Positions 5,736-64,000 of a stretch of DNA of 64,000 nucleotides are shown here, piece after piece. The notes below the pieces were generated by a model. That model searched no databases. It saw only the letters and a list, made by a program, of their open reading frames with translations, and was not told the DNA's origin. The stretch is from assembly GCF_053078305.1 (NCBI RefSeq), contig NZ_CP166879.1; one strand, given 5' to 3'. How positions within the stretch are numbered: position 1 is the first letter of the stretch; every line of letters starts with the position of its first letter. Both the position numbers and the translations under genes were made by a program.

Positions 5736-5761
5736 GGTTGTTACCTCGTTACCTTTGGTCG

Positions 5762-5800
5762 AAAAAAAAGCCCGCACTGTCAGGTGCGGGCTTTTTTCTG
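5762..5800 (-). terminator. thr operon attenuator (rho-independent terminator hairpin with U-tract)
   Basis: On the minus strand AAGCCCGCACCTGACAGTGCGGGCTTTTTTTT lies between thrL and thrA. Confidence 0.85.
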
Positions 5801-5815
5801 TGTTTCCTGTACGCG

Positions 5816-5884
<69 letters not shown>

Positions 5885-18877: not shown

Positions 18878-18915
18878 TGCCGGATGCGGCGCGCCAGCAC
18901 CGCATCCGGTATTAG
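18878..18915. repeat. REP-like palindrome, probable ettA terminator
   Basis: GCCGGATGCGGCG...CCGCATCCGGT hairpin 10 bp after the ettA stop. Confidence 0.7.
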
Positions 18916-19023
18916 TTAAATGATTAGTCCCCGGAAAAAGGCAGAATTTTCTTTTAGTGTATTAGCTCAGATGCGGACTGACATCTCAAATCAAGCGGGA
19001 ACTCATGATTCCCGCTTAACGTT

Positions 19024-19911
19024 CTATTCACCGCGCAGAATCTGGCGGAAATGGGAAACCAACGGACGTTGGTTGGCTTTATGCCAGGCTGCCCATAATT
19101 GCGTTGAATAATTCATCCACGGCAATTCACGTAATACCACCCCTTCCGGCGCATTATGACGCAGACTATGTTGAATTAAGGCCAGACCTAATCCCGCAGC
19201 GACCAGACCTAATGCCGTGAGGGGTTCACCCGCTTCCAGGCGAATATCAGGATTAAACCCGGCGTTAACACAGGCGGCGACAAAATGATCGCGAGAATGC
19301 GCATCGTCGTTATGAATCACCGCAATCCACTGCTCATCGCCAAGTTGTGACGCGACAAGGTTTTCCTCCTGCGCCAGAGGATGATTTTGCGGTAAGGCCA
19401 ACAACATTCGATCATCCAGAACCTGAATATATTCCAGATCCTGCTCGCTGTCGGTGGGCGGCGTATCGACCAGAGAAAAATCGAGACTGCGCTGGCGCAG
19501 GCCTTCAATCTGGGTAGCCGGTGGTTGGCTGTAAAGTGCGATATGCACATTCGGACGCGATACACGTAACGTACGTAGCGCCGTAGAAAGCACACCGGAA
19601 TGCATGGCGTTTTCGATATAGCCAATACACAAGCCACCATCTTCCCCCCGTCCCAGGCGTTTGCCTAACGACTCCAGGCGGTTGGCGTGTGTCAGCAACG
19701 AACGTGTTTCGGCAAGGAATGTCTGTCCATCAGCGGTCAGGCGAATGCGCTGCTGATTACGCTCAAACAGCGTCAGCCCCAGTCGTTCTTCCAGTTGTGC
19801 AATCTGGCGGCTCAGCGGCGATTGCGAGATATGTAATCGCTCGGCTGCGCGTCCCACGTGCTCTTCTTCTGCGACCACCACGAAGTACTTCAGTTGGCGT
19901 AAATCAATCAT
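19024..19911 (-). CDS. LysR-family transcriptional regulator (accessory island)
   Basis: ORF 19024..20004; start placed at the Met giving MIDLRQLKYFVVVAEEEHVGRAAERLHISQSPLSRQIAQLEE (LysR HTH); divergent from the AKR-SDR-SRPBCC operon. Confidence 0.85.
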   Translation of the reverse strand: MIDLRQLKYFVVVAEEEHVGRAAERLHISQSPLSRQIAQLEERLGLTLFERNQQRIRLTADGQTFLAETRSLLTHANRLESLGKRLGRGEDGGLCIGYIENAMHSGVLSTALRTLRVSRPNVHIALYSQPPATQIEGLRQRSLDFSLVDTPPTDSEQDLEYIQVLDDRMLLALPQNHPLAQEENLVASQLGDEQWIAVIHNDDAHSRDHFVAACVNAGFNPDIRLEAGEPLTALGLVAAGLGLALIQHSLRHNAPEGVVLRELPWMNYSTQLWAAWHKANQRPLVSHFRQILRGE

Positions 19912-19976
19912 GTTAGACCTCAAAGGACTTAAGTCAGACGAATTATGTCCTATCAAGTCACAACCTCGCAAGGTAT

Positions 19977-19992
19977 TGTGATCCACGTCACA
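19977..19992. promoter_or_regulatory. Perfect TGTGA-N6-TCACA palindrome (CRP-like core or regulator operator) in the divergent promoter region
   Basis: TGTGATCCACGTCACA read directly from the sequence between the LysR start (19911) and the AKR start (20045). Confidence 0.35.
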
Positions 19993-20044
19993 GGGCGATA
20001 GCAAAAAAACGCCCTAACCCAAACCGAATAATTGAGGACATCTT

Positions 20045-21055
20045 ATGAGCATTAAAAATTTACTCCCCGGCAAAATTGGCTTAGGCGGCGCACCACTTGG
20101 CAACATGTTCCGTGCCATTCCGGAAGAAGAGGCCCACGCCACCGTGAGCGAAGCCTGGAACCTGGGTGTGCGTTACTTTGATACCGCGCCGCTGTACGGC
20201 TCTGGCCTTTCTGAAATCCGCATGGGTGAAGCGCTGTCTCAGTATCCACGCGATGAATACGTTCTGAGTAGCAAAGTCGGTCGCATCATGCTGGACGAAA
20301 TGGAAGATCCGGCAAAACGGGATTTCGGTGAAAAAGGTGGCCTGTTCGAACACGGCCTGAAAAACAAAATTCTGAATGACTACTCTGCTGACGCCACTCT
20401 GCGCTCGATTGAAGACAGCCTGAAACGCCTGAAAACAGACCGTCTGGATATTGTCTGGATCCACGACCCGGCGCAGGACTTCTACGGTGACAGCTGGCTG
20501 GAGCAGTTCAACATTGCCCGTACCGGTGCATTTCGTGCGCTGACGCGTTTGCGTGACGAAGGTGTGATTAAAGCCTGGGGACTGGGTGTGAACCGCGTCG
20601 AACCTTGCGAACTGACGCTGGCGCTGGACGAACCGAAGCCGGATGCGTTCCTGCTGGCGGGGCGTTATTCCCTGCTGGATCACGAACGTGCGCTGCAACG
20701 CCTGATGCCAGAAGCACTGGAACAGAACGTGGATATCGTTGTGGGCGGTCCATACAGCTCTGGCGTACTGGCAGGCGGCGAGCACTTTGAATATCAGAAA
20801 GCCTCTGCGGCCATCCAGCAGAAAGTGGCGCAAATTAACGCCATTGCCACACGTTTCAATGTGAACGTTAAAGCGGCTGCGCTGCAGTTCGCGCTGGCAA
20901 ACCCGGCCGTTGCAGCGGTTATTCCTGGCTCCAGCCGTCCTGGTCGTATGGCAGAAGATCTGGCTGCACTGAATGCGCCTGTTCCGGCTGAATTCTGGGC
21001 AGAAATGCGCCGTCAAAATCTGGTTGCGGAAAACGCTCCGCTGCCGACCCGTTAA
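20045..21055 (+). CDS. Aldo-keto reductase family oxidoreductase (accessory island)
   Basis: 336-aa ORF with AKR-like N-terminus (GLGGAPLGNMF...YFDTAPLYGSG...); RBS GAGGA upstream. Confidence 0.85.
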   Translation: MSIKNLLPGKIGLGGAPLGNMFRAIPEEEAHATVSEAWNLGVRYFDTAPLYGSGLSEIRMGEALSQYPRDEYVLSSKVGRIMLDEMEDPAKRDFGEKGGLFEHGLKNKILNDYSADATLRSIEDSLKRLKTDRLDIVWIHDPAQDFYGDSWLEQFNIARTGAFRALTRLRDEGVIKAWGLGVNRVEPCELTLALDEPKPDAFLLAGRYSLLDHERALQRLMPEALEQNVDIVVGGPYSSGVLAGGEHFEYQKASAAIQQKVAQINAIATRFNVNVKAAALQFALANPAVAAVIPGSSRPGRMAEDLAALNAPVPAEFWAEMRRQNLVAENAPLPTR

Positions 21056-21074
21056 TCAACCAGGTGAGAAAACG

Positions 21075-21872
21075 ATGAAACTGGATCTGACAGGTAAAGT
21101 CGCGGTGGTCAGCGGCTCAACCTCCGGCATTGGGCAGGGTATCGCCGCCGGACTGGCAAAAGCAGGCGCAACGGTGGTTGTCGTCGGCCGTAAACAGAGC
21201 GGCGTTGATGACGCCATGGCTGCGATTGCGGCACAAACTCCCACAGCGTCACTGCGCGGCGTGGTGGCCGATCTCAGCACCGAAGACGGCGTGGCTGCGC
21301 TGATCGCTGCAGTCCCAACGGCTGATGTGCTGGTCAATAATCTGGGCATTTTTAACGATAAAGATTTCTTTAGCGTTCCGGATGATGAGTGGATGCACTT
21401 CTATAACGTCAACGTCCTCTCCGGCGTTCGTCTGGCGCGTCACTATGCGCCAGGCATGACGGAACAGGGCTGGGGGCGGATTATCTTTGTCTCGTCCGAA
21501 TCCGGCGTGGCAATCCCTGGCGACATGATCAACTACGGCGTCACCAAAGCCGCGAATCTGGCGGTTTCTCATGGTCTGGCGAAACGACTGGCGGGGACCG
21601 GTGTGACCGTCAACGCCATTCTGCCAGGGCCAACCTTTACCGATGGCCTGAAAGAGATGCTGGCGGATGCCGCTGCACAATCGGGACGCAGTGCGCGTGA
21701 ACAGGCCGATGAATTTGTTAAAACCTCGCGTCCGAGCTCCATCATCCAGCGTGCGGCAGATGTGGAAGAAGTGGCGAATCTGGCGGTTTATCTCGCGTCA
21801 CCGCTTTCCTCGGCAACCACAGGGGCAGCCCTGCGCGTCGATGGCGGCGTCGTCGACACCCTGACAATGTAA
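21075..21872 (+). CDS. Short-chain dehydrogenase/reductase (accessory island)
   Basis: ORF 20973..21872; start at MKLDLTGKVAVVSGSTSGIGQGIA (Rossmann TGxxxGIG) with a YxxxK catalytic motif (YGVTK); 19 bp after the AKR gene. Confidence 0.85.
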   Translation: MKLDLTGKVAVVSGSTSGIGQGIAAGLAKAGATVVVVGRKQSGVDDAMAAIAAQTPTASLRGVVADLSTEDGVAALIAAVPTADVLVNNLGIFNDKDFFSVPDDEWMHFYNVNVLSGVRLARHYAPGMTEQGWGRIIFVSSESGVAIPGDMINYGVTKAANLAVSHGLAKRLAGTGVTVNAILPGPTFTDGLKEMLADAAAQSGRSAREQADEFVKTSRPSSIIQRAADVEEVANLAVYLASPLSSATTGAALRVDGGVVDTLTM

Positions 21873-21897
21873 CCCTATAAATTAAGAGAAAATTATC

Positions 21898-22314
21898 ATG
21901 GCTAAAACAACTGTATCGATCGAAATTCCGGCTTCTGGCGACGCCGTATGGCAATTGATGGGCGGCTTTGATGCGCTGCCAGACTGGCTACCATTCATCC
22001 CGAAAAGCGTGGTGACAGAAGGCGGTCGCGTTCGTTCGCTGACAACCTCTGACGGCGGCACTGTGGTTGAACGTCTGGAAGCGTTTGATAACCGTCAACG
22101 CAGTTATACCTATTCCATTATTCAGGCACCGTTCCCGGTGGTGGATTACCTCTCCACCATTACCGTTCATGAAACCGCCGACAGCCAGGTTTCCCGTGTG
22201 GAATGGTTCGGTGAATTCACCCCGGTGAATGTGACGAACGAAGAGGCCGAGGCGCTGTTTACCGGCATCTATCGGGATGGACTCAAGGCGCTTAAGGACA
22301 ACTTTGTTGCCTGA
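21898..22314 (+). CDS. SRPBCC / Bet v1-like (polyketide cyclase-type) small protein
   Basis: 138-aa ORF 25 bp after the SDR gene; size and composition fit SRPBCC ligand-binding proteins; assignment is by resemblance only. Confidence 0.6.
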   Translation: MAKTTVSIEIPASGDAVWQLMGGFDALPDWLPFIPKSVVTEGGRVRSLTTSDGGTVVERLEAFDNRQRSYTYSIIQAPFPVVDYLSTITVHETADSQVSRVEWFGEFTPVNVTNEEAEALFTGIYRDGLKALKDNFVA

Positions 22315-22471
22315 TGCGATCGACAGGCGTCGGCACGTCCGGCGTCTGATTATTAACAAAAACAGAATAGTCTATTGTCATTTGTATCATTTATGTTATC
22401 AGACAGCAGGCGTATTCTCTCCCCATCGCGTTAATAAACGCCAAACAATTAAGACACTCTGGAATATAAAC

Positions 22472-22684
22472 ATGAAAACGATCATCGCAATTTTTACCGC
22501 TTCTCTTTTCTCTGTCGCGGCGTTTAACGCATCGGCGCAAAGCGTGACAGCAACCGGTACAACACTGGATTCCGCTGAAGCGGTTATTGCGCAGAAAGCG
22601 AAAGAGATGAACGCCTCTGAATACAAAATTACCAGCGCTCGCATGGGCAATACCGTCACCATGAGTGCCGAACTGTATAAATAA
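22472..22684 (+). CDS. DUF1471 (YhcN/YdgH-like) small periplasmic stress protein
   Basis: 70-aa ORF with signal peptide MKTIIAIFTASLFSVAAFNASA and the conserved C-terminal motif of the family (...KITSARMGNTVTMSAELYK). Confidence 0.75.
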   Translation: MKTIIAIFTASLFSVAAFNASAQSVTATGTTLDSAEAVIAQKAKEMNASEYKITSARMGNTVTMSAELYK

Positions 22685-22708
22685 TCGCGCGAGGAACCCA
22701 TTACGTAA

Positions 22709-23039
22709 TTTGCTAAATATGCGCTGAATGCGTTGCCATTAATAAACCGTATTGTACTGCCACCGATGACGCGTTCCCGCGCCGGTGCGGGTGACGTTGC
22801 GATTGGCATGATGGCGGAGTATTACGCGCAGCGCGCCAGTGCTGGACTTATCATCAGCGAAGGTACGCAAATCAGCAGAATCGCTGCGCATAATTTTCCA
22901 CGGCACGCTGATTTACTCCGGTAAATACACCAAAGCGCGCGCCGAACAGGCGCTGGCTAACGGCTGGTCGGATCTGATTGGTTTTGGTCGTCCGTATAGT
23001 GCCAGGAGCGGAAGTTGTCGAAGGGTCATAAAGAGCTAA
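22709..23039 (+). pseudogene. Decayed Old Yellow Enzyme (NemA-like) flavin oxidoreductase: N- and C-terminal fragments with an internal deletion and frameshift
   Basis: Frame A reads ...NRIVLPPMTRSRAGAGDVAIGMMAEYYAQRASAGLIISEGTQIS (like the NemA N-terminus); frame B reads ...HGTLIYSGKYTKARAEQALANGWSDLIGFGRPY (like the NemA C-terminal region); no ATG start; the middle two-thirds of the protein is missing. Confidence 0.7.
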
Positions 23040-23355
23040 ACCCCGGCATTGCTTCTCAGCTGTTTATAGCCGTTCCTGGGTACAAGTGAGCACTAAGGCG
23101 AGCATTGTTATAATCACCAACCAATCACTAGTTGTGTACAAATTCTGACCGCAAAGCGAACTCTCCGGCATGCAGGTTGGAGAAAGCACAGTTGACCTAA
23201 AATGCTCCTCCAGCCAGAAACAAAAGGTGGCCGATAATTCGAAAGCAAAAAAAGATAAAGCAGGGAATGTGCCCGCAAATTCTTAATCATATAGCCAAAC
23301 CGAGCAGCGTATGATATCCAGCCCTGATACGGGCTGGATATTAAATTTTCGCCGG

Positions 23356-23823
23356 TCAGTTATCGCAATGACCTGGCACTGCTAACTTAACTTCAGGTTT
23401 AGAAACGACGCGGATACCTTCGCTTTCGGATACCTGTTCAAGTCCAGCCCCACCAACAAAAACGCCCATTTTGATGTACTGGCGAACAAAGTAGTTTTTC
23501 CCGGACGTGACATTGAGTGTCAGATTATTAGGTGAAAACTCGGATTCAGTTCCCAGCGTATGTGGTTGGCTGGTCGATATTTGCTGATAGAAAAAGACTC
23601 TGTCAGCCGTTTCACCAAGACAACGGCCGTCAAGATAAACATCCTTTTTTAACGCTTTACCAACAAAGCTGTCTCTGTAAACGTATAGACCGGCTTTGCC
23701 ATTTTCCGGGACCGGGAAAGACTTAGCTGTCTCGTTTTCAGCATTACTGCCCAGAGGAACCGACGCACACCCCCCCAGAAGCACTGAGGAAATAATGACT
23801 GCGCCAAATAAAATTTTATTCAT
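23356..23823 (-). CDS. Lipoprotein (DUF2846-like)
   Basis: 155-aa ORF with lipobox (MNKILFGAVIISSVLLGGC-ASVP). Confidence 0.8.
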   Translation of the reverse strand: MNKILFGAVIISSVLLGGCASVPLGSNAENETAKSFPVPENGKAGLYVYRDSFVGKALKKDVYLDGRCLGETADRVFFYQQISTSQPHTLGTESEFSPNNLTLNVTSGKNYFVRQYIKMGVFVGGAGLEQVSESEGIRVVSKPEVKLAVPGHCDN

Positions 23824-23949
23824 TGAATTCTCATGGAGTTAAGAAAATCGCCAAATGAGAATAAACTTATTTTACACTTATGTCATTAAAGGAGGCATTG
23901 CTTCACAACAACATCAATGTTCATCCCGGAACCGTCCACTTCCGCTTCT

Positions 23950-24128
23950 CGCTCAAAACGGACTGTCATATTTGATTGCATTCTGGCTACGCAACCGGTC
24001 GGTTGGAGTATGAAGTTGCTCACGAATAGCCTTAGCATCCGCAATTTCGTAGCGGGTCACCCGTACAGGTTCTTTCTAATCTCGACAGCCTCTTCCAGAG
24101 AGGTTTTCAACTCATCAAAAAAACTCAT
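23950..24128 (-). pseudogene. Remnant of a small XRE-family antitoxin-like gene (N-terminal fragment, frameshifted)
   Basis: Minus-strand ATG at 24128 gives MSFFDELKTSLEEAVEIRKNLYG then a stop; a shifted frame continues RVTRYEIADAKAIREQL...; resembles the N-terminal region of COG2944-type HTH antitoxins; it sits 33 bp from the nadR stop. Confidence 0.4.
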
Positions 24129-36989: not shown

Positions 36990-37195
36990 GCCGGATACGG
37001 CCTACGGTTCGGCACAGACTTGTAGGCCTGATAAGACGCGTCAAGCGTCGCATCAGGCATTGTGCGCCAACTGCCGGATGCGGCGTGAACGCCTTATCCG
37101 GCCTACGGTTCGGCACAAACCTGTAGGCATGATAAGACGCGTTAAGCGTCGCATCAGGCATTATGCGCCGACTGCCGGATGCTGCCTACGAAGGG
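36990..37195. repeat. BIME/REP array (two near-identical ~100-bp units each containing paired REPs)
   Basis: GCCGGATACGGCCTACGGTTCGGCAC...TGTAGGCCTGATAAGACGCG...CGCATCAGGC repeated twice between yjjW and yjjV. Confidence 0.85.
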
Positions 37196-43762: not shown

Positions 43763-44794
43763 ATGTCTGCATTTACCCCGGCAAGTGAAGTCTTGCTGCG
43801 TCACAGTGATGATTTCGAACAAAGCCGTATTCTGTTTGCCGGAGACTTACAGGATGACCTGCCCGCGCGTTTAGATACCGCGACCAGCCGTGCTCATACC
43901 CAGCAATTCCATCACTGGCAGGTGTTAAGCCGCCAGATGGGTGATAACGCCCGTTTTAGTCTGGTCGCCACGGCGGATGACGTCGCAGATTGCGATACGC
44001 TGATTTACTACTGGCCGAAGAACAAACCGGAAGCCCAGTTCCAGTTGATGAATTTACTTTCTCTGCTGCCGGTGGGCACGGATATTTTTGTCGTTGGCGA
44101 GAACCGCAGCGGCGTGCGCAGCGCAGAGCAGATACTGGCAGATTATGCGCCGTTGAATAAAGTCGACAGCGCCCGTCGCTGTGGCCTCTATTTTGGTCGT
44201 CTGGAAAAGCAGCCGGTGTTTGATGCCGATAAATTCTGGGGCGAATACAGCGTCGATGGCCTGACGGTCAAAACGCTGCCGGGCGTGTTTAGCCGCGACG
44301 GTCTGGATGTCGGTAGCCAGTTGCTGCTCTCGACGTTAACTCCGCACACGAAAGGTAAAGTGCTGGATGTCGGCTGTGGCGCGGGTGTGCTTTCAGTTGC
44401 CTTTGCGCGCCATTCGCCGAAAATTCGTCTCACCTTGTGCGATGTCTCTGCCCCGGCGGTAGAAGCCAGCCGCGCAACACTTGCGGCCAACGGTGTTGAA
44501 GGTGAAGTCTTTGCCAGCAACGTCTTTTCCGAGGTGAAAGGTCGTTTTGATATGATCATCTCCAACCCGCCGTTCCACGATGGGATGCAAACCAGCCTGG
44601 ATGCGGCGCAAACGCTGATTCGCGGCGCGGTGCGTCATCTTAATAGCGGCGGCGAGCTGCGAATTGTAGCGAACGCCTTCCTGCCTTACCCGGACGTGCT
44701 GGATGAGACATTTGGCTTCCATGAAGTTATCGCGCAAACCGGGCGCTTCAAGGTGTATCGCGCCATTATGACCCGCCAGGCGAAGAAAGGTTAA
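43763..44794 (+). CDS. rsmC: 16S rRNA m2G1207 methyltransferase RsmC
   Basis: 343-aa ORF with SAM-binding motif ([11 protein letters not shown]) and NPPFH motif. Confidence 0.95.
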
Positions 44795-44804
44795 TTATCT
44801 CGCC

Positions 44805-44940
<136 letters not shown>

Positions 44941-44992
44941 GTTTCCTGATGGACATTTTTCCAGCAATTACACCTCCGGCGATAATTAACTA

Positions 44993-45020
44993 TTGACGAA
45001 AAGCTGAAAACCACTAGAAT
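44993..45020 (+). promoter_or_regulatory. Probable sigma70 promoter of the leuQPV tRNA operon
   Basis: TTGACG (-35) - 16 bp - TAGAAT (-10), followed by a GC-rich discriminator GCGCCTCC; about 40 bp upstream of the first tRNA. Confidence 0.6.
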
Positions 45021-45061
45021 GCGCCTCCGTGGTAGCAATTCTTTTTAAGAATTGATGGTAT

Positions 45062-45148
45062 GCGAAGGTGGCGGAATTGGTAGACGCGCTAGCTTCAGGT
45101 GTTAGTGTCCTTACGGACGTGGGGGTTCAAGTCCCCCCCCTCGCACCA
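45062..45148 (+). tRNA. leuQ: tRNA-Leu (anticodon CAG)
   Basis: 87-nt sequence GCGAAGGTGGCGGAATTGGTAGACGCGCTAGCTTCAGGTG...CTCGCACCA; anticodon loop CTTCAGGTG; long variable arm; encoded CCA. Confidence 0.95.
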
Positions 45149-45176
45149 AAAACCACGTTGATATTGCTCGCACTGG

Positions 45177-45263
45177 GCGAAGGTGGCGGAATTGGTAGAC
45201 GCGCTAGCTTCAGGTGTTAGTGTTCTTACGGACGTGGGGGTTCAAGTCCCCCCCCTCGCACCA
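45177..45263 (+). tRNA. leuP: tRNA-Leu (anticodon CAG), one-base variant in the variable arm
   Basis: Same 87-nt tRNA except TGTTCTT where the other copies have TGTCCTT. Confidence 0.95.
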
Positions 45264-45297
45264 AACGAGGCGATATCAAAAAAAGTAAGATGACTGT

Positions 45298-45384
45298 GCG
45301 AAGGTGGCGGAATTGGTAGACGCGCTAGCTTCAGGTGTTAGTGTCCTTACGGACGTGGGGGTTCAAGTCCCCCCCCTCGCACCA
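45298..45384 (+). tRNA. leuV: tRNA-Leu (anticodon CAG)
   Basis: Third tandem copy, identical to the first. Confidence 0.95.
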
Positions 45385-45422
45385 ATTATCTTTACTTCCT
45401 TTCTTGTTTCTTCCCTGTTTTA

Positions 45423-45659
45423 TCATCCCTGATTCAAATTCATTATCATCAGCATGATGCCAGCAATAAGCGCCAGGCACGATGGTAGCAAAACGTAATG
45501 CCGCAACTGTTTGTGATACAGCATCATCGGCGTCAATACTAATCCCATCAGAATGATAATCCGCCATTGATCCGGCGATAAATCCGCATACATCAGCCCT
45601 GCAATCAGCAATCCCGGTAGCAACACTCCCCAGCCACTGCCCAGCGTACGTTGCAACAT
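45423..45659 (-). CDS. yjjZ: Small inner membrane protein YjjZ (78 aa)
   Basis: ORF 45423..45770; start placed at MLQRTLGSGWGVLLPGLLIAGLMYADLSPDQWRIIILMGLV...; the upstream in-frame extension is judged non-coding. Confidence 0.7.
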   Translation of the reverse strand: MLQRTLGSGWGVLLPGLLIAGLMYADLSPDQWRIIILMGLVLTPMMLYHKQLRHYVLLPSCLALIAGIMLMIMNLNQG

Positions 45660-45675
45660 GGTTTCATCTCTTTCA

Positions 45676-45716
45676 TTGATAATGATAACCAATATCATAT
45701 GATAATTTTTATCATT
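45676..45716. promoter_or_regulatory. Fur-box-like sequences (GATAATGATAACC... and GATAATTTTTATCATT)
   Basis: Matches to the Fur consensus GATAATGATAATCATTATC in the yjjZ-fhuF divergent region. Confidence 0.55.
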
Positions 45717-45765
45717 TGCAAGCCAGAGAAATCCCTTGCTATCGGGTAAACCTATCGCTAGGATT

Positions 45766-45786
45766 AGCAATCATTATCATTTAGAT
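45766..45786. promoter_or_regulatory. Fur-box-like sequence immediately upstream of fhuF (AATCATTATCATT)
   Basis: Fur-consensus-like 13-mer about 20 bp upstream of the fhuF start; fhuF is a known Fur-regulated gene. Confidence 0.55.
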
Positions 45787-45799
45787 TACTATCCCGATT

Positions 45800-46588
45800 A
45801 TGGCCTATCGTTCCGCACCGCTCTATGAAGATGTTATCTGGCGAACACATCTCCAGCCGCAGGATGCTGGGCTTGCACAAGCCGTACGGGCGATGATCGC
45901 CAAACATCGTGAACATTTGCTGGAGTTTATCCGCCTGGATGAACCCGCTCCGCTTAACGCCATGACGCTGGCGCAATGGTCATCACCGAATGCGCTAAGT
46001 TCTCTACTCGCGGTCTATTCCGATCATATCTACCGCAACCAACCAACGATGATCCGCGAGAACAAACCGCTGATCTCACTGTGGGCGCAGTGGTATATCG
46101 GCCTGATGGTGCCACCATTAATGCTGGCGCTACTGACGCAGGAAAAGGCATTAGATGTGTCGCCGGAACATTTCCATGCTGAGTTTCACGAAACCGGACG
46201 CGTCGCCTGTTTCTGGGTCGATGTGTGTGAAGATAAAAACGCAACACCACATTCGCCGCAGCATCGAATGGAAACGTTAATCAGCCAGGCGCTGGTTCCG
46301 GTTGTGCAAGCACTAGAAGCGACCGGAGAGATCAACGGCAAACTTATCTGGAGTAATACCGGTTATTTGATCAACTGGTATCTCACTGAGATGAAGCAAC
46401 TGCTCGGCGAGGCTACTGTTGAATCGCTGCGTCATGCCCTCTTTTTTGAGAAAACGCTCACGAACGGTGAAGATAATCCACTCTGGCGTACCGTGGTGCT
46501 ACGCGACGGCCTGCTGGTGCGCCGCACTTGCTGCCAGCGTTATCGCTTACCAGATGTGCAGCAATGTGGCGATTGTACGCTGAAATGA
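45800..46588 (+). CDS. fhuF: Ferric-siderophore reductase FhuF (2Fe-2S)
   Basis: 262-aa ORF ending with the C-C-x10-C-x2-C cluster motif (CCQRYRLPDVQQCGDC). Confidence 0.95.
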   Translation: MAYRSAPLYEDVIWRTHLQPQDAGLAQAVRAMIAKHREHLLEFIRLDEPAPLNAMTLAQWSSPNALSSLLAVYSDHIYRNQPTMIRENKPLISLWAQWYIGLMVPPLMLALLTQEKALDVSPEHFHAEFHETGRVACFWVDVCEDKNATPHSPQHRMETLISQALVPVVQALEATGEINGKLIWSNTGYLINWYLTEMKQLLGEATVESLRHALFFEKTLTNGEDNPLWRTVVLRDGLLVRRTCCQRYRLPDVQQCGDCTLK

Positions 46589-59875: not shown

Positions 59876-60045
59876 TAGGTAGCGACTTGAAACTGGTTAA
59901 TTTTACCTCACTTTTTTAATTTTTGTTCAAAAATACAATAACCACTTATTGATACATTTTCTGTTCTTATTTTTTTCACACGAATTGTATCTATTTTGAA
60001 CGAAATATTTTATAGAGTGTGGAATTTTAAGAAAGGACATCTGAA

Positions 60046-60588
60046 ATGTTAAACCGTGACTTCGATCATCTCTCAACGCTATTACATCTCTTTTTTGAAC
60101 GTGAGGATATTTGCCAAAAGCTTAATATTATTGACCAAAACAATATCACCGGTTGGGAAGTGTGGTTCCAGGTAGAGTTTGCTAATATGCTCTGCTCAAC
60201 AGACCATGAATGGTGGCGTGAACAAGCACTTTCCTGTGATATGCGCAAAAAACCTGAGCGCCCGACACTACGCACAGATTTCTTACTACGTAAAAAAGGC
60301 TGGGCACAAGATAGCTATATCGCGCTTGAAATAAAACAAAACAGAGACGCGACCAGTTGTGTTAAAAATATGATCGCAGACTTAGAAAAAAGCGCAAAAA
60401 TAAAACGTTCCGAACTCGATTTACGCAGTTTCTGGACCTTGGGTATCACCCCTATGATAGACAGGGAAAGGCTGGACTCTCTCATCGATTGCTATTTAGA
60501 TGAGAAATTTTATCTTACTAAATCTCGTAAAAAACACGTTTTACTTAAAGAAATAAATAACACACCATATTGCTATATTGTTATTTAA
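60046..60588 (+). CDS. Hypothetical protein (180 aa), low GC, with PD-(D/E)xK nuclease-like motif
   Basis: ATG with RBS AAGGA 8 nt upstream; motif ...RTDFLL (D78) ... YIALEIK (E95, K97) with a preceding Glu-rich helix (E38/E44); AT-rich relative to its neighbours. Confidence 0.65.
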   Translation: MLNRDFDHLSTLLHLFFEREDICQKLNIIDQNNITGWEVWFQVEFANMLCSTDHEWWREQALSCDMRKKPERPTLRTDFLLRKKGWAQDSYIALEIKQNRDATSCVKNMIADLEKSAKIKRSELDLRSFWTLGITPMIDRERLDSLIDCYLDEKFYLTKSRKKHVLLKEINNTPYCYIVI

Positions 60589-60685
60589 TATTTATAGCAT
60601 GAATATAATTTTTAAATGAGTTACACAACCGAGGGCTAAAAATCGCTTCGGTTGTGATCATCATCACATAAATAACCTTCATAAA

Positions 60686-60713
60686 CCTTGCTCAAAACCG
60701 CTCAACCGCAAAA
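60686..60713 (+). promoter_or_regulatory. Probable BtsR (YehT) binding site in the btsT promoter
   Basis: Direct repeats ACCGCTCA ... ACCGCTTA (plus ACCGCAAA between them), resembling the ACC(G/A)CT(C/T)A repeat recognised by YehT; about 170-195 bp upstream of btsT. Confidence 0.45.
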
Positions 60714-60880
60714 CTGACCGCTTACGTCCCTAAAATAACCACTCAGTTATTTACCTTACTTTACGCGCGCGTAACTCTGGCAGCATCACTGCAGGATAGC
60801 GGTCAATTTACCTCCTCAAACGCAACGCAAACCTAGAACGGCTTCGGCCAACTATTAATCAATACATGCCAGGTTTTACT

Positions 60881-63031
60881 ATGGATACGAAAAAACTATT
60901 CAAGCACATACCCTGGGTGATTCTCGGAATCATCGGTGCATTCTGCCTCGCGGTAGTTGCATTACGTCGGGGGGAGCACGTCAGTGCCCTGTGGATCGTG
61001 GTCGCCTCTGTGTCGGTGTATCTGGTGGCGTATCGCTACTACAGTCTGTACATCGCCCAGAAGGTGATGAAACTCGACCCTACGCGCGCGACGCCTGCGG
61101 TTATTAACAACGACGGTCTGAACTATGTTCCGACCAACCGTTACGTGTTGTTTGGTCACCACTTCGCCGCTATCGCCGGTGCCGGTCCGCTGGTTGGTCC
61201 GGTGCTCGCCGCGCAGATGGGCTACCTGCCTGGCACGCTGTGGCTGCTGGCGGGGGTAGTGCTGGCCGGTGCGGTACAGGACTTTATGGTGCTGTTTATC
61301 TCCTCTCGCCGTAACGGCGCATCTCTCGGTGAGATGATCAAAGAAGAGATGGGGCCAGTACCGGGGACTATCGCGCTGTTTGGCTGTTTCTTAATCATGA
61401 TCATCATCCTAGCCGTCCTGGCGCTGATTGTGGTTAAAGCCCTGGCCGAAAGTCCGTGGGGTGTCTTCACCGTTTGCTCAACCGTACCGATTGCGCTGTT
61501 TATGGGTATCTACATGCGCTTTATCCGTCCGGGGCGTGTGGGTGAAGTCTCTGTTATTGGTATCGTGCTGCTGGTTGCCTCTATCTACTTCGGTGGCGTG
61601 ATTGCTCACGATCCGTACTGGGGTCCGGCACTGACCTTTAAAGACACCACCATTACCTTCGCGCTGATTGGCTATGCGTTTGTTTCCGCACTGCTGCCGG
61701 TGTGGCTGATCCTCGCACCGCGCGACTATCTGGCAACCTTCCTGAAAATCGGCGTTATCGTCGGCCTGGCGCTGGGTATCGTGGTGCTGAACCCGGAACT
61801 GAAAATGCCTGCGATGACCCAGTACATTGACGGTACTGGCCCGCTGTGGAAAGGCGCTCTGTTCCCGTTCCTGTTCATCACCATCGCCTGTGGTGCGGTA
61901 TCTGGCTTCCACGCGCTGATCTCTTCCGGTACGACGCCGAAACTGCTGGCTAACGAAACCGACGCGCGTTTCATCGGCTACGGCGCAATGCTGATGGAGT
62001 CCTTCGTGGCGATTATGGCGCTGGTTGCAGCGTCCATCATCGAACCGGGTCTTTACTTCGCGATGAACACTCCGCCTGCTGGCCTTGGCATCACCATGCC
62101 TAACCTGCATGAAATGGGTGGCGAGAACGCGCCGATCATCATGGCGCAGCTGAAAGACGTTACCGCACACGCGGCAGCGACCGTCAGCTCCTGGGGCTTC
62201 GTGATTTCGCCAGAGCAGATCCTGCAAACCGCGAAAGACATTGGTGAGCCTTCTGTCCTGAACCGTGCAGGTGGTGCGCCGACGCTGGCGGTAGGTATCG
62301 CTCATGTGTTCCACAAAGTGCTACCGATGGCTGACATGGGCTTCTGGTATCACTTCGGTATTCTGTTCGAAGCCCTGTTCATCCTGACCGCGCTGGATGC
62401 GGGTACCCGTTCTGGCCGCTTTATGCTGCAAGATCTGCTGGGTAACTTCATCCCGTTCCTGAAAAAAACCGACTCTCTGGTTGCCGGTATCATCGGTACT
62501 GCGGGCTGTGTGGGTCTGTGGGGCTACCTGCTGTATCAGGGCGTGGTCGATCCGCTGGGCGGCGTTAAGAGCCTGTGGCCGCTGTTCGGTATCTCCAACC
62601 AGATGCTGGCAGCCGTAGCGCTGGTACTGGGCACCGTTGTGCTGATTAAGATGAAGCGCACCCAATACATCTGGGTAACTGTTGTTCCGGCTGTATGGCT
62701 GCTTATCTGCACCACCTGGGCGCTGGGCCTGAAACTGTTCAGCACCAACCCGCAGATGGAAGGCTTCTTCTACATGGCAAGCCAGTACAAAGAGAAGATT
62801 GCTAACGGTACTGACCTGACGGCGCAGCAGATTGCCAACATGAACCACATCGTTGTGAACAACTACACCAACGCGGGCCTGAGTATTCTGTTCCTGATTG
62901 TGGTGTACAGCATCATCTTCTACGGTTTCAAAACCTGGCTTGCGGTGCGTAACAGCGACAAACGTACTGACAAAGAAACACCGTACGTTCCAATCCCGGA
63001 AGGCGGCGTGAAGATCTCTTCGCACCACTAA
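60881..63031 (+). CDS. btsT: Pyruvate/H+ symporter BtsT (CstA family)
   Basis: ORF 60866..63031; start placed at MDTKKLFKHIPWVILGIIGAFCLAVVALRRGEH (716 aa); polytopic membrane protein. Confidence 0.95.
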   Translation: MDTKKLFKHIPWVILGIIGAFCLAVVALRRGEHVSALWIVVASVSVYLVAYRYYSLYIAQKVMKLDPTRATPAVINNDGLNYVPTNRYVLFGHHFAAIAGAGPLVGPVLAAQMGYLPGTLWLLAGVVLAGAVQDFMVLFISSRRNGASLGEMIKEEMGPVPGTIALFGCFLIMIIILAVLALIVVKALAESPWGVFTVCSTVPIALFMGIYMRFIRPGRVGEVSVIGIVLLVASIYFGGVIAHDPYWGPALTFKDTTITFALIGYAFVSALLPVWLILAPRDYLATFLKIGVIVGLALGIVVLNPELKMPAMTQYIDGTGPLWKGALFPFLFITIACGAVSGFHALISSGTTPKLLANETDARFIGYGAMLMESFVAIMALVAASIIEPGLYFAMNTPPAGLGITMPNLHEMGGENAPIIMAQLKDVTAHAAATVSSWGFVISPEQILQTAKDIGEPSVLNRAGGAPTLAVGIAHVFHKVLPMADMGFWYHFGILFEALFILTALDAGTRSGRFMLQDLLGNFIPFLKKTDSLVAGIIGTAGCVGLWGYLLYQGVVDPLGGVKSLWPLFGISNQMLAAVALVLGTVVLIKMKRTQYIWVTVVPAVWLLICTTWALGLKLFSTNPQMEGFFYMASQYKEKIANGTDLTAQQIANMNHIVVNNYTNAGLSILFLIVVYSIIFYGFKTWLAVRNSDKRTDKETPYVPIPEGGVKISSHH

Positions 63032-63080
63032 CCGTGTTTAGCCCCGCTTCGGCGGGGCTTTGTTCTTATCAGAGTGAACT

Positions 63081-63284
63081 ATGTTTGGTAACTTAGGACA
63101 GGCAAAAAAATATCTCGGCCAGGCGGCGAAGATGTTGATTGGTATTCCAGACTACGACAACTACGTCGAGCATATGAAGACCAACCATCCCGACAAGCCG
63201 TACATGAGCTATGAAGAATTCTTCCGCGAACGCCAGAACGCGCGCTACGGCGGCGATGGTAAAGGCGGTATGCGCTGTTGTTAA
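63081..63284 (+). CDS. yjiX: YjiX, DUF466 small protein
   Basis: 67-aa ORF immediately downstream of btsT ([67 protein letters not shown]). Confidence 0.9.
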
Positions 63285-63294
63285 TGGAGAGAGC

Positions 63295-64000
63295 ATGAAC
63301 CCGATTGCAGTAACCCTACTCACCGGTTTTTTAGGCGCGGGAAAAACCACCCTGCTGCGCCATATTCTTAACGAACAACACGGCTACAAGATTGCCGTGA
63401 TTGAAAACGAATTCGGCGAAGTCTCCGTTGATGATCAATTGATTGGCGACCGCGCCACGCAGATCAAAACGCTGACCAACGGCTGCATCTGCTGTTCGCG
63501 CTCCAACGAGCTGGAGGACGCGCTACTCGACCTGCTGGATAATCTCGACAAGGGCAATATTCAGTTCGATCGTCTGGTCATTGAATGCACCGGCATGGCC
63601 GATCCCGGCCCGATTATTCAGACCTTTTTCTCCCATGAGATTTTATGCCAGCGTTACCTGCTGGACGGCGTGATTGCGCTGGTGGATGCGGTACATGCCG
63701 ATGAGCAGATGAACCAGTTCACCATCGCCCAGTCCCAGGTTGGCTACGCCGACCGTATTCTGCTGACCAAAACCGACGTCGCAGGCGAAGCAGAAAAACT
63801 GCGCGAACGCCTGGCGCGCATCAACGCCCGTGCACCGGTCTACACCGTTACCCACGGCGACATCGACCTGGGCCTGCTGTTCAACACCAACGGTTTTATG
63901 CTGGAAGAAAACGTCGTCAGCACCAAACCGCGTTTCCACTTTATCGCGGATAAACAAAACGATATTTCGTCGATTGTGGTAGAACTGGATTACCCGGTAG
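63295..64000 (+). CDS. yjiA: CobW/YjiA-family P-loop GTPase, 5' portion; continues beyond the window end
   Basis: ATG at 63295; translation MNPIAVTLLTGFLGAGKTTLLRHILNEQHGYKIAVIENEFGEV... with Walker A GFLGAGKTT and GCICCS motif. Confidence 0.9.
   Translation, partial: MNPIAVTLLTGFLGAGKTTLLRHILNEQHGYKIAVIENEFGEVSVDDQLIGDRATQIKTLTNGCICCSRSNELEDALLDLLDNLDKGNIQFDRLVIECTGMADPGPIIQTFFSHEILCQRYLLDGVIALVDAVHADEQMNQFTIAQSQVGYADRILLTKTDVAGEAEKLRERLARINARAPVYTVTHGDIDLGLLFNTNGFMLEENVVSTKPRFHFIADKQNDISSIVVELDYPV

Follow-up and report, generated by a model that had tools for sequence, protein, structure and literature searches.

Three tandem tRNA-Leu genes that agree at every base but one raise two questions: what the deviating base in the middle copy represents (an error, a recent mutation or an established allele of the locus), and whether a tRNA-Leu locus, as a potential integration site, carries or has carried a mobile element. 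We examine these genes within a window of 64,000 nucleotides, by which we mean the whole stretch of DNA that was analysed; it is a piece of E. coli chromosome that runs against the K-12 numbering, with the threonine leader at 5761-5880 on the - strand (Rfam). Our reading, of which we are very nearly certain, is that the interval is the leuQ-leuP-leuV operon of E. coli with its canonical leuP allele, served by one promoter, processed (to judge from K-12) by RNase P only, and free of any mobile element. The operon, its RNase P-only processing, its Rho-dependent termination and the one-base difference of leuP are already published. tRNA-Leu1 (anticodon CAG) has four genes, three of which are those of leuQPV, and the codon that it reads, CUG, is the most used codon of E. 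coli. The finding is thus a textbook locus correctly labelled, and it matters little, chiefly for annotation.

We begin with the genes themselves. The preliminary description claimed three tandem tRNA-Leu(CAG) genes, and ARAGORN returns exactly three tRNA genes of any kind in the 64-kb window, all of them tRNA-Leu(CAG) and on the + strand: leuQ at 45062-45148, leuP at 45177-45263 and leuV at 45298-45384, each also recovered by Rfam and by alignment. The Rfam tRNA model RF00005 scores 48.5 bits for each of them, against a gathering score of 29, and ARAGORN places the anticodon cag at position 35 of the 87-nt gene. The three-gene alignment has 86 invariant columns out of 87, as expected if the middle copy differs by a single base. 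At the remaining column, column 48 (window position 45224 in leuP), copies 1 and 3 carry C and only copy 2 carries T, so that leuQ and leuV are identical C-type genes, leuP is T-type, and the variable-arm strings are TGTCCTT and TGTTCTT just as they had been written. The CCA end said to be encoded is present as well: all three genes close with ...CGCACCA, that is, with discriminator A73 followed by the 3' CCA. A pattern made from the 26 nt of the 3' end finds three matches in the window where shuffled sequence gives an expectation of 0.00, and three 87-nt copies with this level of identity cannot be a product of chance. When one of the tRNAs is folded by ViennaRNA without constraints, the cloverleaf does not appear. 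This is common with unmodified sequences of class II tRNAs, and the covariance model and ARAGORN are the relevant tests. The products are presumably charged with leucine and used in translation, as their identity to the K-12 tRNA-Leu1 genes suggests.

The neighbourhood is that of K-12. The leuQPV genes lie on the same strand as rsmC, between rsmC and yjjZ/fhuF, and the annotation of K-12 and of the closest genomes confirms that the flanks are core genes, with rsmC upstream and yjjZ and fhuF downstream; yjjZ encodes a DUF1435 protein at 45423-45659 on the - strand, convergent with the operon. The comparison with K-12 leuQPV that had been called for is a pairwise alignment of window positions 44794-45424, where 44794 is the stop codon of rsmC. 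With respect to leuQ-leuP-leuV of K-12 MG1655 (b4370, b4369 and b4368; the tRNA-Leu1 operon), the tRNAs are the same base for base, including the T in leuP, and the 28-nt and 34-nt spacers, the leader, the -35 and -10 hexamers and the discriminator are identical too. K-12 differs by three substitutions upstream of the -35 hexamer, in a non-conserved stretch, and by a few more in the distal trailer, past about +21 counted from leuV; none of these touches a recognised element. Since the K-12 genes are transcribed in the order leuQ, leuP, leuV, the name leuP for the middle copy is also the right one. Further downstream, the divergent yjjZ-fhuF promoter region holds overlapping GATAAT/ATCATT palindromes at 45676-45721 and 45762-45786, which we take to be Fur boxes from their appearance, and which would fit an iron-regulated fhuF.

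Turning to expression, the best promoter-like site in the region consists of a -35 hexamer TTGACG at 44993-44998 and a -10 hexamer TAGAAT at 45015-45020, both on the + strand, separated by 16 nt and matching the consensus at 10 of 12 positions; the -10 hexamer is followed by a G+C-rich discriminator, GCGCCTCC, in an element that extends to 45028. The -35 hexamer is the same in K-12 and invariant in 14 genera, CTAGAATGCGCCTCCGTGGT is invariant in all of the aligned genera (again 14), and the pattern AATTAACT.TTGACG...CTAGAATGCGCCTCCGTGGT as a whole is invariant or nearly so, while the sequence further upstream is not conserved. An exception is a block about 70 nt upstream of the probable start, GGACATTTTTCCAGC at 44951-44965 (+ strand), which is kept across the 14 genera as CATTTTT.CA.C.AT, at 44954-44968, although the sequence around it is not. 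We take this block to be a candidate for FIS site I of the leuV promoter (compare Ross et al. 1999, J Bacteriol 181:3864). From the geometry of the promoter and from known stable-RNA promoters we infer a transcription start near 45028-45029, and the same stable-RNA architecture suggests that the promoter is subject to growth-rate and stringent control. In this scheme one strong sigma-70 promoter (TTGACG, 16 nt, TAGAAT and the G+C-rich discriminator), with an A+T-rich block and the FIS-site-like block upstream of it, would drive all three genes as one transcript about 360 nt long, the first 33 nt or so of which form the leader.

Between the rsmC stop codon (44794) and this promoter lie two palindromic units of REP type, a BIME-like cluster at 44814-44907, where the REP assignment is our own, made from the GCCGGATG/CTAC consensus; the cluster is context and stands outside the function of the operon. 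It is the variable part of the rsmC-leuQ intergenic region: with window positions 44600-45800 as a 1.2-kb query, only 2910 of 5425 genomes match over 80% or more of the query length, and many of the matches start at query position 204, 322 or 347. Elsewhere in the window, between yjjW and yjjV, Rfam reports matches on both strands to naRNA4 (CssrE, a REP-derived nucleoid-associated RNA) at 37025-37103.

For the fate of the transcript we draw on the K-12 literature, in which RNase P alone separates the leuQPV tRNAs, RNase E not being needed (PMC2190699; PMC7049720), and in which transcription after leuV is terminated by Rho and the tail removed by PNPase and RNase II (Mohanty & Kushner 2007, PMC2190699; PMC7049720). 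In an rnpA49 strain at 44 °C the full leuQPV precursor builds up, with a half-life of more than 32 min (PMC2190699). The processing and termination pathway for the present locus rests on these published results: RNase P would split the transcript into three tRNAs without RNase E, Rho would end transcription past leuV, and PNPase together with RNase II would trim the tail. Several features of the sequence bear on this. The spacers begin with CCAAAAACC and CCAAACGAG, with no U directly after the CCA, and a scan of the region finds no hairpin terminator on the + strand. The published Rho-dependent termination region corresponds to the trailer at 45385-45464 (+ strand), which is unstructured, C-rich and G-poor (21 C and 7 G in 80 nt, a C/G ratio of 3.0) and overlaps the 3' end of the convergent yjjZ. 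Taken together, one promoter-like site, the starts of the spacers, the missing hairpin and the C-rich trailer are consistent with a single transcript that is cut by RNase P and ended by Rho.

How constant is this arrangement within E. coli? The leuQ-leuP spacer is present in 4976 of 5425 genomes and missing from the remaining 8% or so, and leuP with both of its spacers is found in 4962 E. coli genomes. In O157:H7 the locus holds one gene, of C-type, at 1885-1971 of the retrieved locus, with the leuQ leader upstream and the leuV trailer downstream of it. This combination of outer flanks around a single gene points to recombination between the outer copies, and we read the roughly 8% of genomes without the leuP slot as probable losses by recombination between copies. 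Copy number therefore differs among E. coli lineages (one in O157:H7 as against three here), which affects tRNA gene counts and the mapping of reads. In addition, a run of eight C in these tRNA genes is a known indel hotspot in mismatch-repair-defective lines (PMC8510543).

Next we consider the variant base. Each gene has a long variable arm with its own stem-loop, which can be read from the sequence as GU(C/U)C paired with GGAC around a UUAC loop. In leuP, T45224 stands in the 5' strand of this stem (G45222-C45225 with G45230-C45233, around the same UUAC loop) and faces G45231, so that a U·G wobble takes the place of a C-G pair and the stem stays intact. To follow the two forms beyond E. coli, we scanned a collection of one genome per species with the T-type core, which gave at least 120 loci. 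The scan took in T-bearing loci only, so it does not give the frequency of C-C-C arrays, and the apparent conservation of the T form is biased upward. Among the matches listed, 46 are three-gene arrays with a T copy, and the T copy is in the middle in 38 and third in 8. The C-T-C order between rsmC and yjjZ/fhuF appears, again among the matches listed, in more than 30 species from about a dozen genera of Enterobacteriaceae, flanked by rsmC, by yjjZ and usually by fhuF: Escherichia albertii, Citrobacter, Klebsiella, Raoultella and Salmonella enterica subsp. arizonae have it, as do Kosakonia, Phytobacter, Pseudocitrobacter, Intestinirhabdus and others. The same scan finds two-gene arrays in Morganellaceae, with T in the first or the second gene, and a T-type leuT in the argX-hisR-leuT-proM cluster of at least 36 species. 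T and C forms thus coexist widely in Enterobacterales.

What do these distributions say about the origin of the lone T? Were it an artefact of sequencing or assembly, or a mutation of recent date private to this strain, in three otherwise identical genes, two of the three copies would carry C, which is what we see, and nothing more speaks for this account. The same T stands in leuP of K-12 MG1655; 4536 of the 5429 complete E. coli records contain the T-type gene without a mismatch; the leuQ-leuP spacer joined to the first 60 nt of leuP with T has an exact match in 4526 records; and arrays of many other genera carry T in their middle gene. Two papers also list leuP as one nucleotide different, one stating it outright (PMC12472396) and the other, a tRNA-seq preprint, giving (leuP) separately from the group (leuQ leuT leuV). 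Because this base recurs in K-12, in most E. coli records and in the cross-genus arrays, a sequencing error at 45224 is ruled out, and to the account as a whole we give practically no credence. The C-to-T change named in the preliminary description accordingly holds as a difference between the copies but fails in its suggestion of a recent mutation: the leuP slot carries T in most E. coli, and the recurrence of T at the same middle position in many other genera makes it an old allele, where either base may be the ancestral one. For annotation, the consequence is that the base has to be left as T and not 'corrected'.

An old allele might also be a selected one. On this account leuP would be a functionally distinct isodecoder (through different stability, modification, fragment production or synthetase kinetics, to name examples), and the middle gene would retain its U·G variant because selection opposes homogenisation with the identical genes on either side. 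The 38 middle positions among the 46 T-bearing three-gene arrays listed lend this some weight, as does the fact that from Escherichia to Kosakonia the C-T-C arrays keep both their order and their rsmC/yjjZ/fhuF neighbours, despite identical 87-nt genes about 115-120 nt away. The leuP slot of E. coli tells the same way, with its 4526 exact T records against about 108 exact C (the latter from the same spacer and leuP query with C, which matches exactly in 561 records, about 453 of which have no spacer and match the 60 tRNA bases only, leaving about 108 genomes, or about 2%, with an apparent C in the slot), and since leuT is T-type at 36 loci or more, a cell often keeps both forms. Against it, the C-G to U·G exchange preserves the stem, and the variable arm, in which it lies, is not known to be a LeuRS identity element in E. 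coli. The T form moreover looks dispensable, given the 108 or so records with C in the slot, and about 8% of E. coli genomes, among them O157:H7 with its single C-type gene, do without the slot altogether. The scan, confined to T-bearing loci, overstates the conservation, and shared ancestry with a low rate of gene conversion fits the pattern equally well. We therefore regard a selected isodecoder as improbable and assume that the U·G variant is functionally equivalent and neutral, although selection could also explain why, across genera, the middle slot has kept its T.

The second question is that of integration. The proposal would be that the locus is, or was, the attachment site of an integrative element that targets tRNA-Leu, with some trace remaining, and the general fact that tRNA genes, leuX included, serve as integration sites is all that favours it. 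leuX is a classic site of this kind and is often occupied by pathogenicity islands. At leuQPV, yjjZ ends 38 nt after leuV; directly downstream of leuV we find this core gene and no integrase or foreign genes; a search of the whole 64 kb with the 26-nt pattern, at up to 3 mismatches, finds the tRNA 3' end in these three genes and nowhere else, in full or in part; and apart from the genes themselves there are no long direct repeats around them. In the population, leuV runs on to yjjZ without a break in 5423 of 5425 complete E. coli genomes, in a test to which insertions shorter than about 700 bp are invisible. An occupied or remnant site is ruled out by the contiguous junction, the lack of a second 3' end and the lack of extra repeats, and the chance that the proposal is right seems to us very small. 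The locus is unoccupied, as had been claimed. The accompanying remark that tRNA-Leu loci are common integration sites is true of other tRNA-Leu genes and does not extend to leuQPV, whose leuV-yjjZ site is essentially never used in E. coli.

Elsewhere in the window, a segment of about 5.1 kb between ettA and nadR (18894-24024) has no counterpart in the closest genome. It carries genes for a LysR regulator, an aldo/keto reductase, an SDR oxidoreductase, an SRPBCC protein, a YdgH/BhsA-like protein and a DUF2846 lipoprotein, together with part of an Old Yellow Enzyme-type gene. The segment is found in 482 of 5426 E. coli genomes, none of which covers more than 82% of it. Beyond tsr, at 59877-64000, window and closest genome no longer agree: the closest genome continues with the hpa operon, and the window with a 180-aa open reading frame that matches nothing in Pfam (60046-60588), together with a gene for a CstA-family transporter at 60866-63031, as in the btsT/yjiY region of K-12. 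A small Rfam match, ES036, lies at 437-479.

With the reading of leuQPV as a conventional K-12-type operon in place, we return to its flanking sequences. Across 38 species the leader, the spacers and the proximal trailer are far better conserved than the neighbouring intergenic DNA, and folds of both the transcript and the alignment predict a leader hairpin and three flank helices, one around each tRNA, in the regions 45028-45054, 45149-45176, 45264-45297 and 45385-45396. It is possible, although we would sooner bet against it, that these segments are more than passive spacers and pair so that each tRNA sits inside a short flank-to-flank helix of its own. The helices and the leader hairpin are a lead and not a result, as the species are related and the alignment is short. 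The predicted hairpin, CAAUUC-UUUUUAA-GAAUUG at 45036-45054 (+ strand), lies between the start site and leuQ and appears in the single-sequence and the alignment folds alike. Across the 38 species 100% of its cells are paired, two of its pairs show compensatory changes (GC/AU and AU/UA), and its covariation score of 0.351, as against 0.195 in shuffles, is reached by 0 of 500 of them.

The putative helices would be built from segments that alternate along the transcript. In the 28-nt leuQ-leuP spacer (45149-45176, + strand; the same in K-12 and strongly conserved across genera), CCACG at 45153-45157 is complementary to CGUGG of the leader (45028-45032), enclosing leuQ, and UUGAUAUUGCUCG would pair with CGAGGCGAUAUCAA of the second spacer, enclosing leuP, in a helix that joins 45158-45170 to 45266-45279. 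The leuP-leuV spacer, 34 nt long (45264-45297, + strand) and likewise the same in K-12, meets the first spacer through CGAG-GCGAUAUCAA, while its AAGAUG pairs with UAUCUU of the trailer, enclosing leuV. The support differs from helix to helix. Around leuV 94% of cells are paired, three pairs are changed on both sides, and the covariation score is 0.302, whereas shuffles give 0.114 (none of 500 attains the score) and slid pairings give no more than 0.085. The leuP helix is 96.9% paired with one-sided changes only, at a single variable pair (UG in 20, CG in 13, UA in 3 and never C·A), and it is absent in Kosakonia oryzendophytica; the leuQ helix is 99.5% paired and invariant in the 38 species, which makes its counts uninformative either way. 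In Xenorhabdus, Morganella and Proteus, whose arrays have two genes, a leader hairpin and flank pairings recur in the same places with different sequences, examples from Morganellaceae being AUCUGAUU/AAUCAGAU, UGUCUG/CAGACA and AUUGAG/CUCAAU. When the duplex energies between upstream and downstream flanks are tested against those of shuffled sequences, the leuP helix is significant (z about -3 in five species), and so is the first helix in Xenorhabdus and Morganella (z of -4.5 and -6.0); the leuQ and leuV helices of Enterobacteriaceae, 5-6 bp long, are not significant in this test, which has low power at such lengths, and for this reason we judge them by their pair counts.

Mohanty and Kushner mention predicted stems at the RNase P sites, with data not shown (PMC2190699), and our literature search found no fuller published description of flank helices. 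If real, the helices could keep each tRNA folding locally, against mispairing with its twins, and could shape a processing that needs RNase P only and is independent of RNase E; the same story could extend to the U-type gene that the middle slot keeps from genus to genus, or its persistence could be neutral. They would then bear on a point that Mohanty and Kushner left open, namely how RNase P recognises its sites in the long leuQPV transcript when RNase E makes no cuts, a modest advance in tRNA processing and no new kind of system.

It remains to compare leuQPV with other tRNA loci. leuX shares with it that it is a leucine tRNA gene of E. coli, but it has another anticodon, being tRNA-Leu(CAA), and it is often occupied by islands, whereas the leuV end is occupied in at most 2 of 5425 genomes. 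It is also monocistronic and has a Rho-independent terminator (PMC2811032). Closer in sequence is leuT of argX-hisR-leuT-proM, the fourth tRNA-Leu(CAG) gene, whose mature sequence in E. coli equals that of leuQ and leuV (PMC12472396; preprint). It differs from leuQPV in being embedded among other tRNAs and in an initial processing that depends on RNase E (PMC2190699), and in many other Enterobacterales it is T-type, unlike the C-type leuT of E. coli K-12. In its processing leuQPV resembles valV-valW, the other tandem tRNA operon of E. coli with RNase P-only processing and Rho-dependent termination, which likewise consists of tandem, near-identical tRNAs that RNase P separates without RNase E, and likewise ends in an unstructured Rho-dependent terminator followed by trimming by PNPase and RNase II (PMC2190699); it differs in having two genes, in serving another amino acid and in lying elsewhere in the genome.
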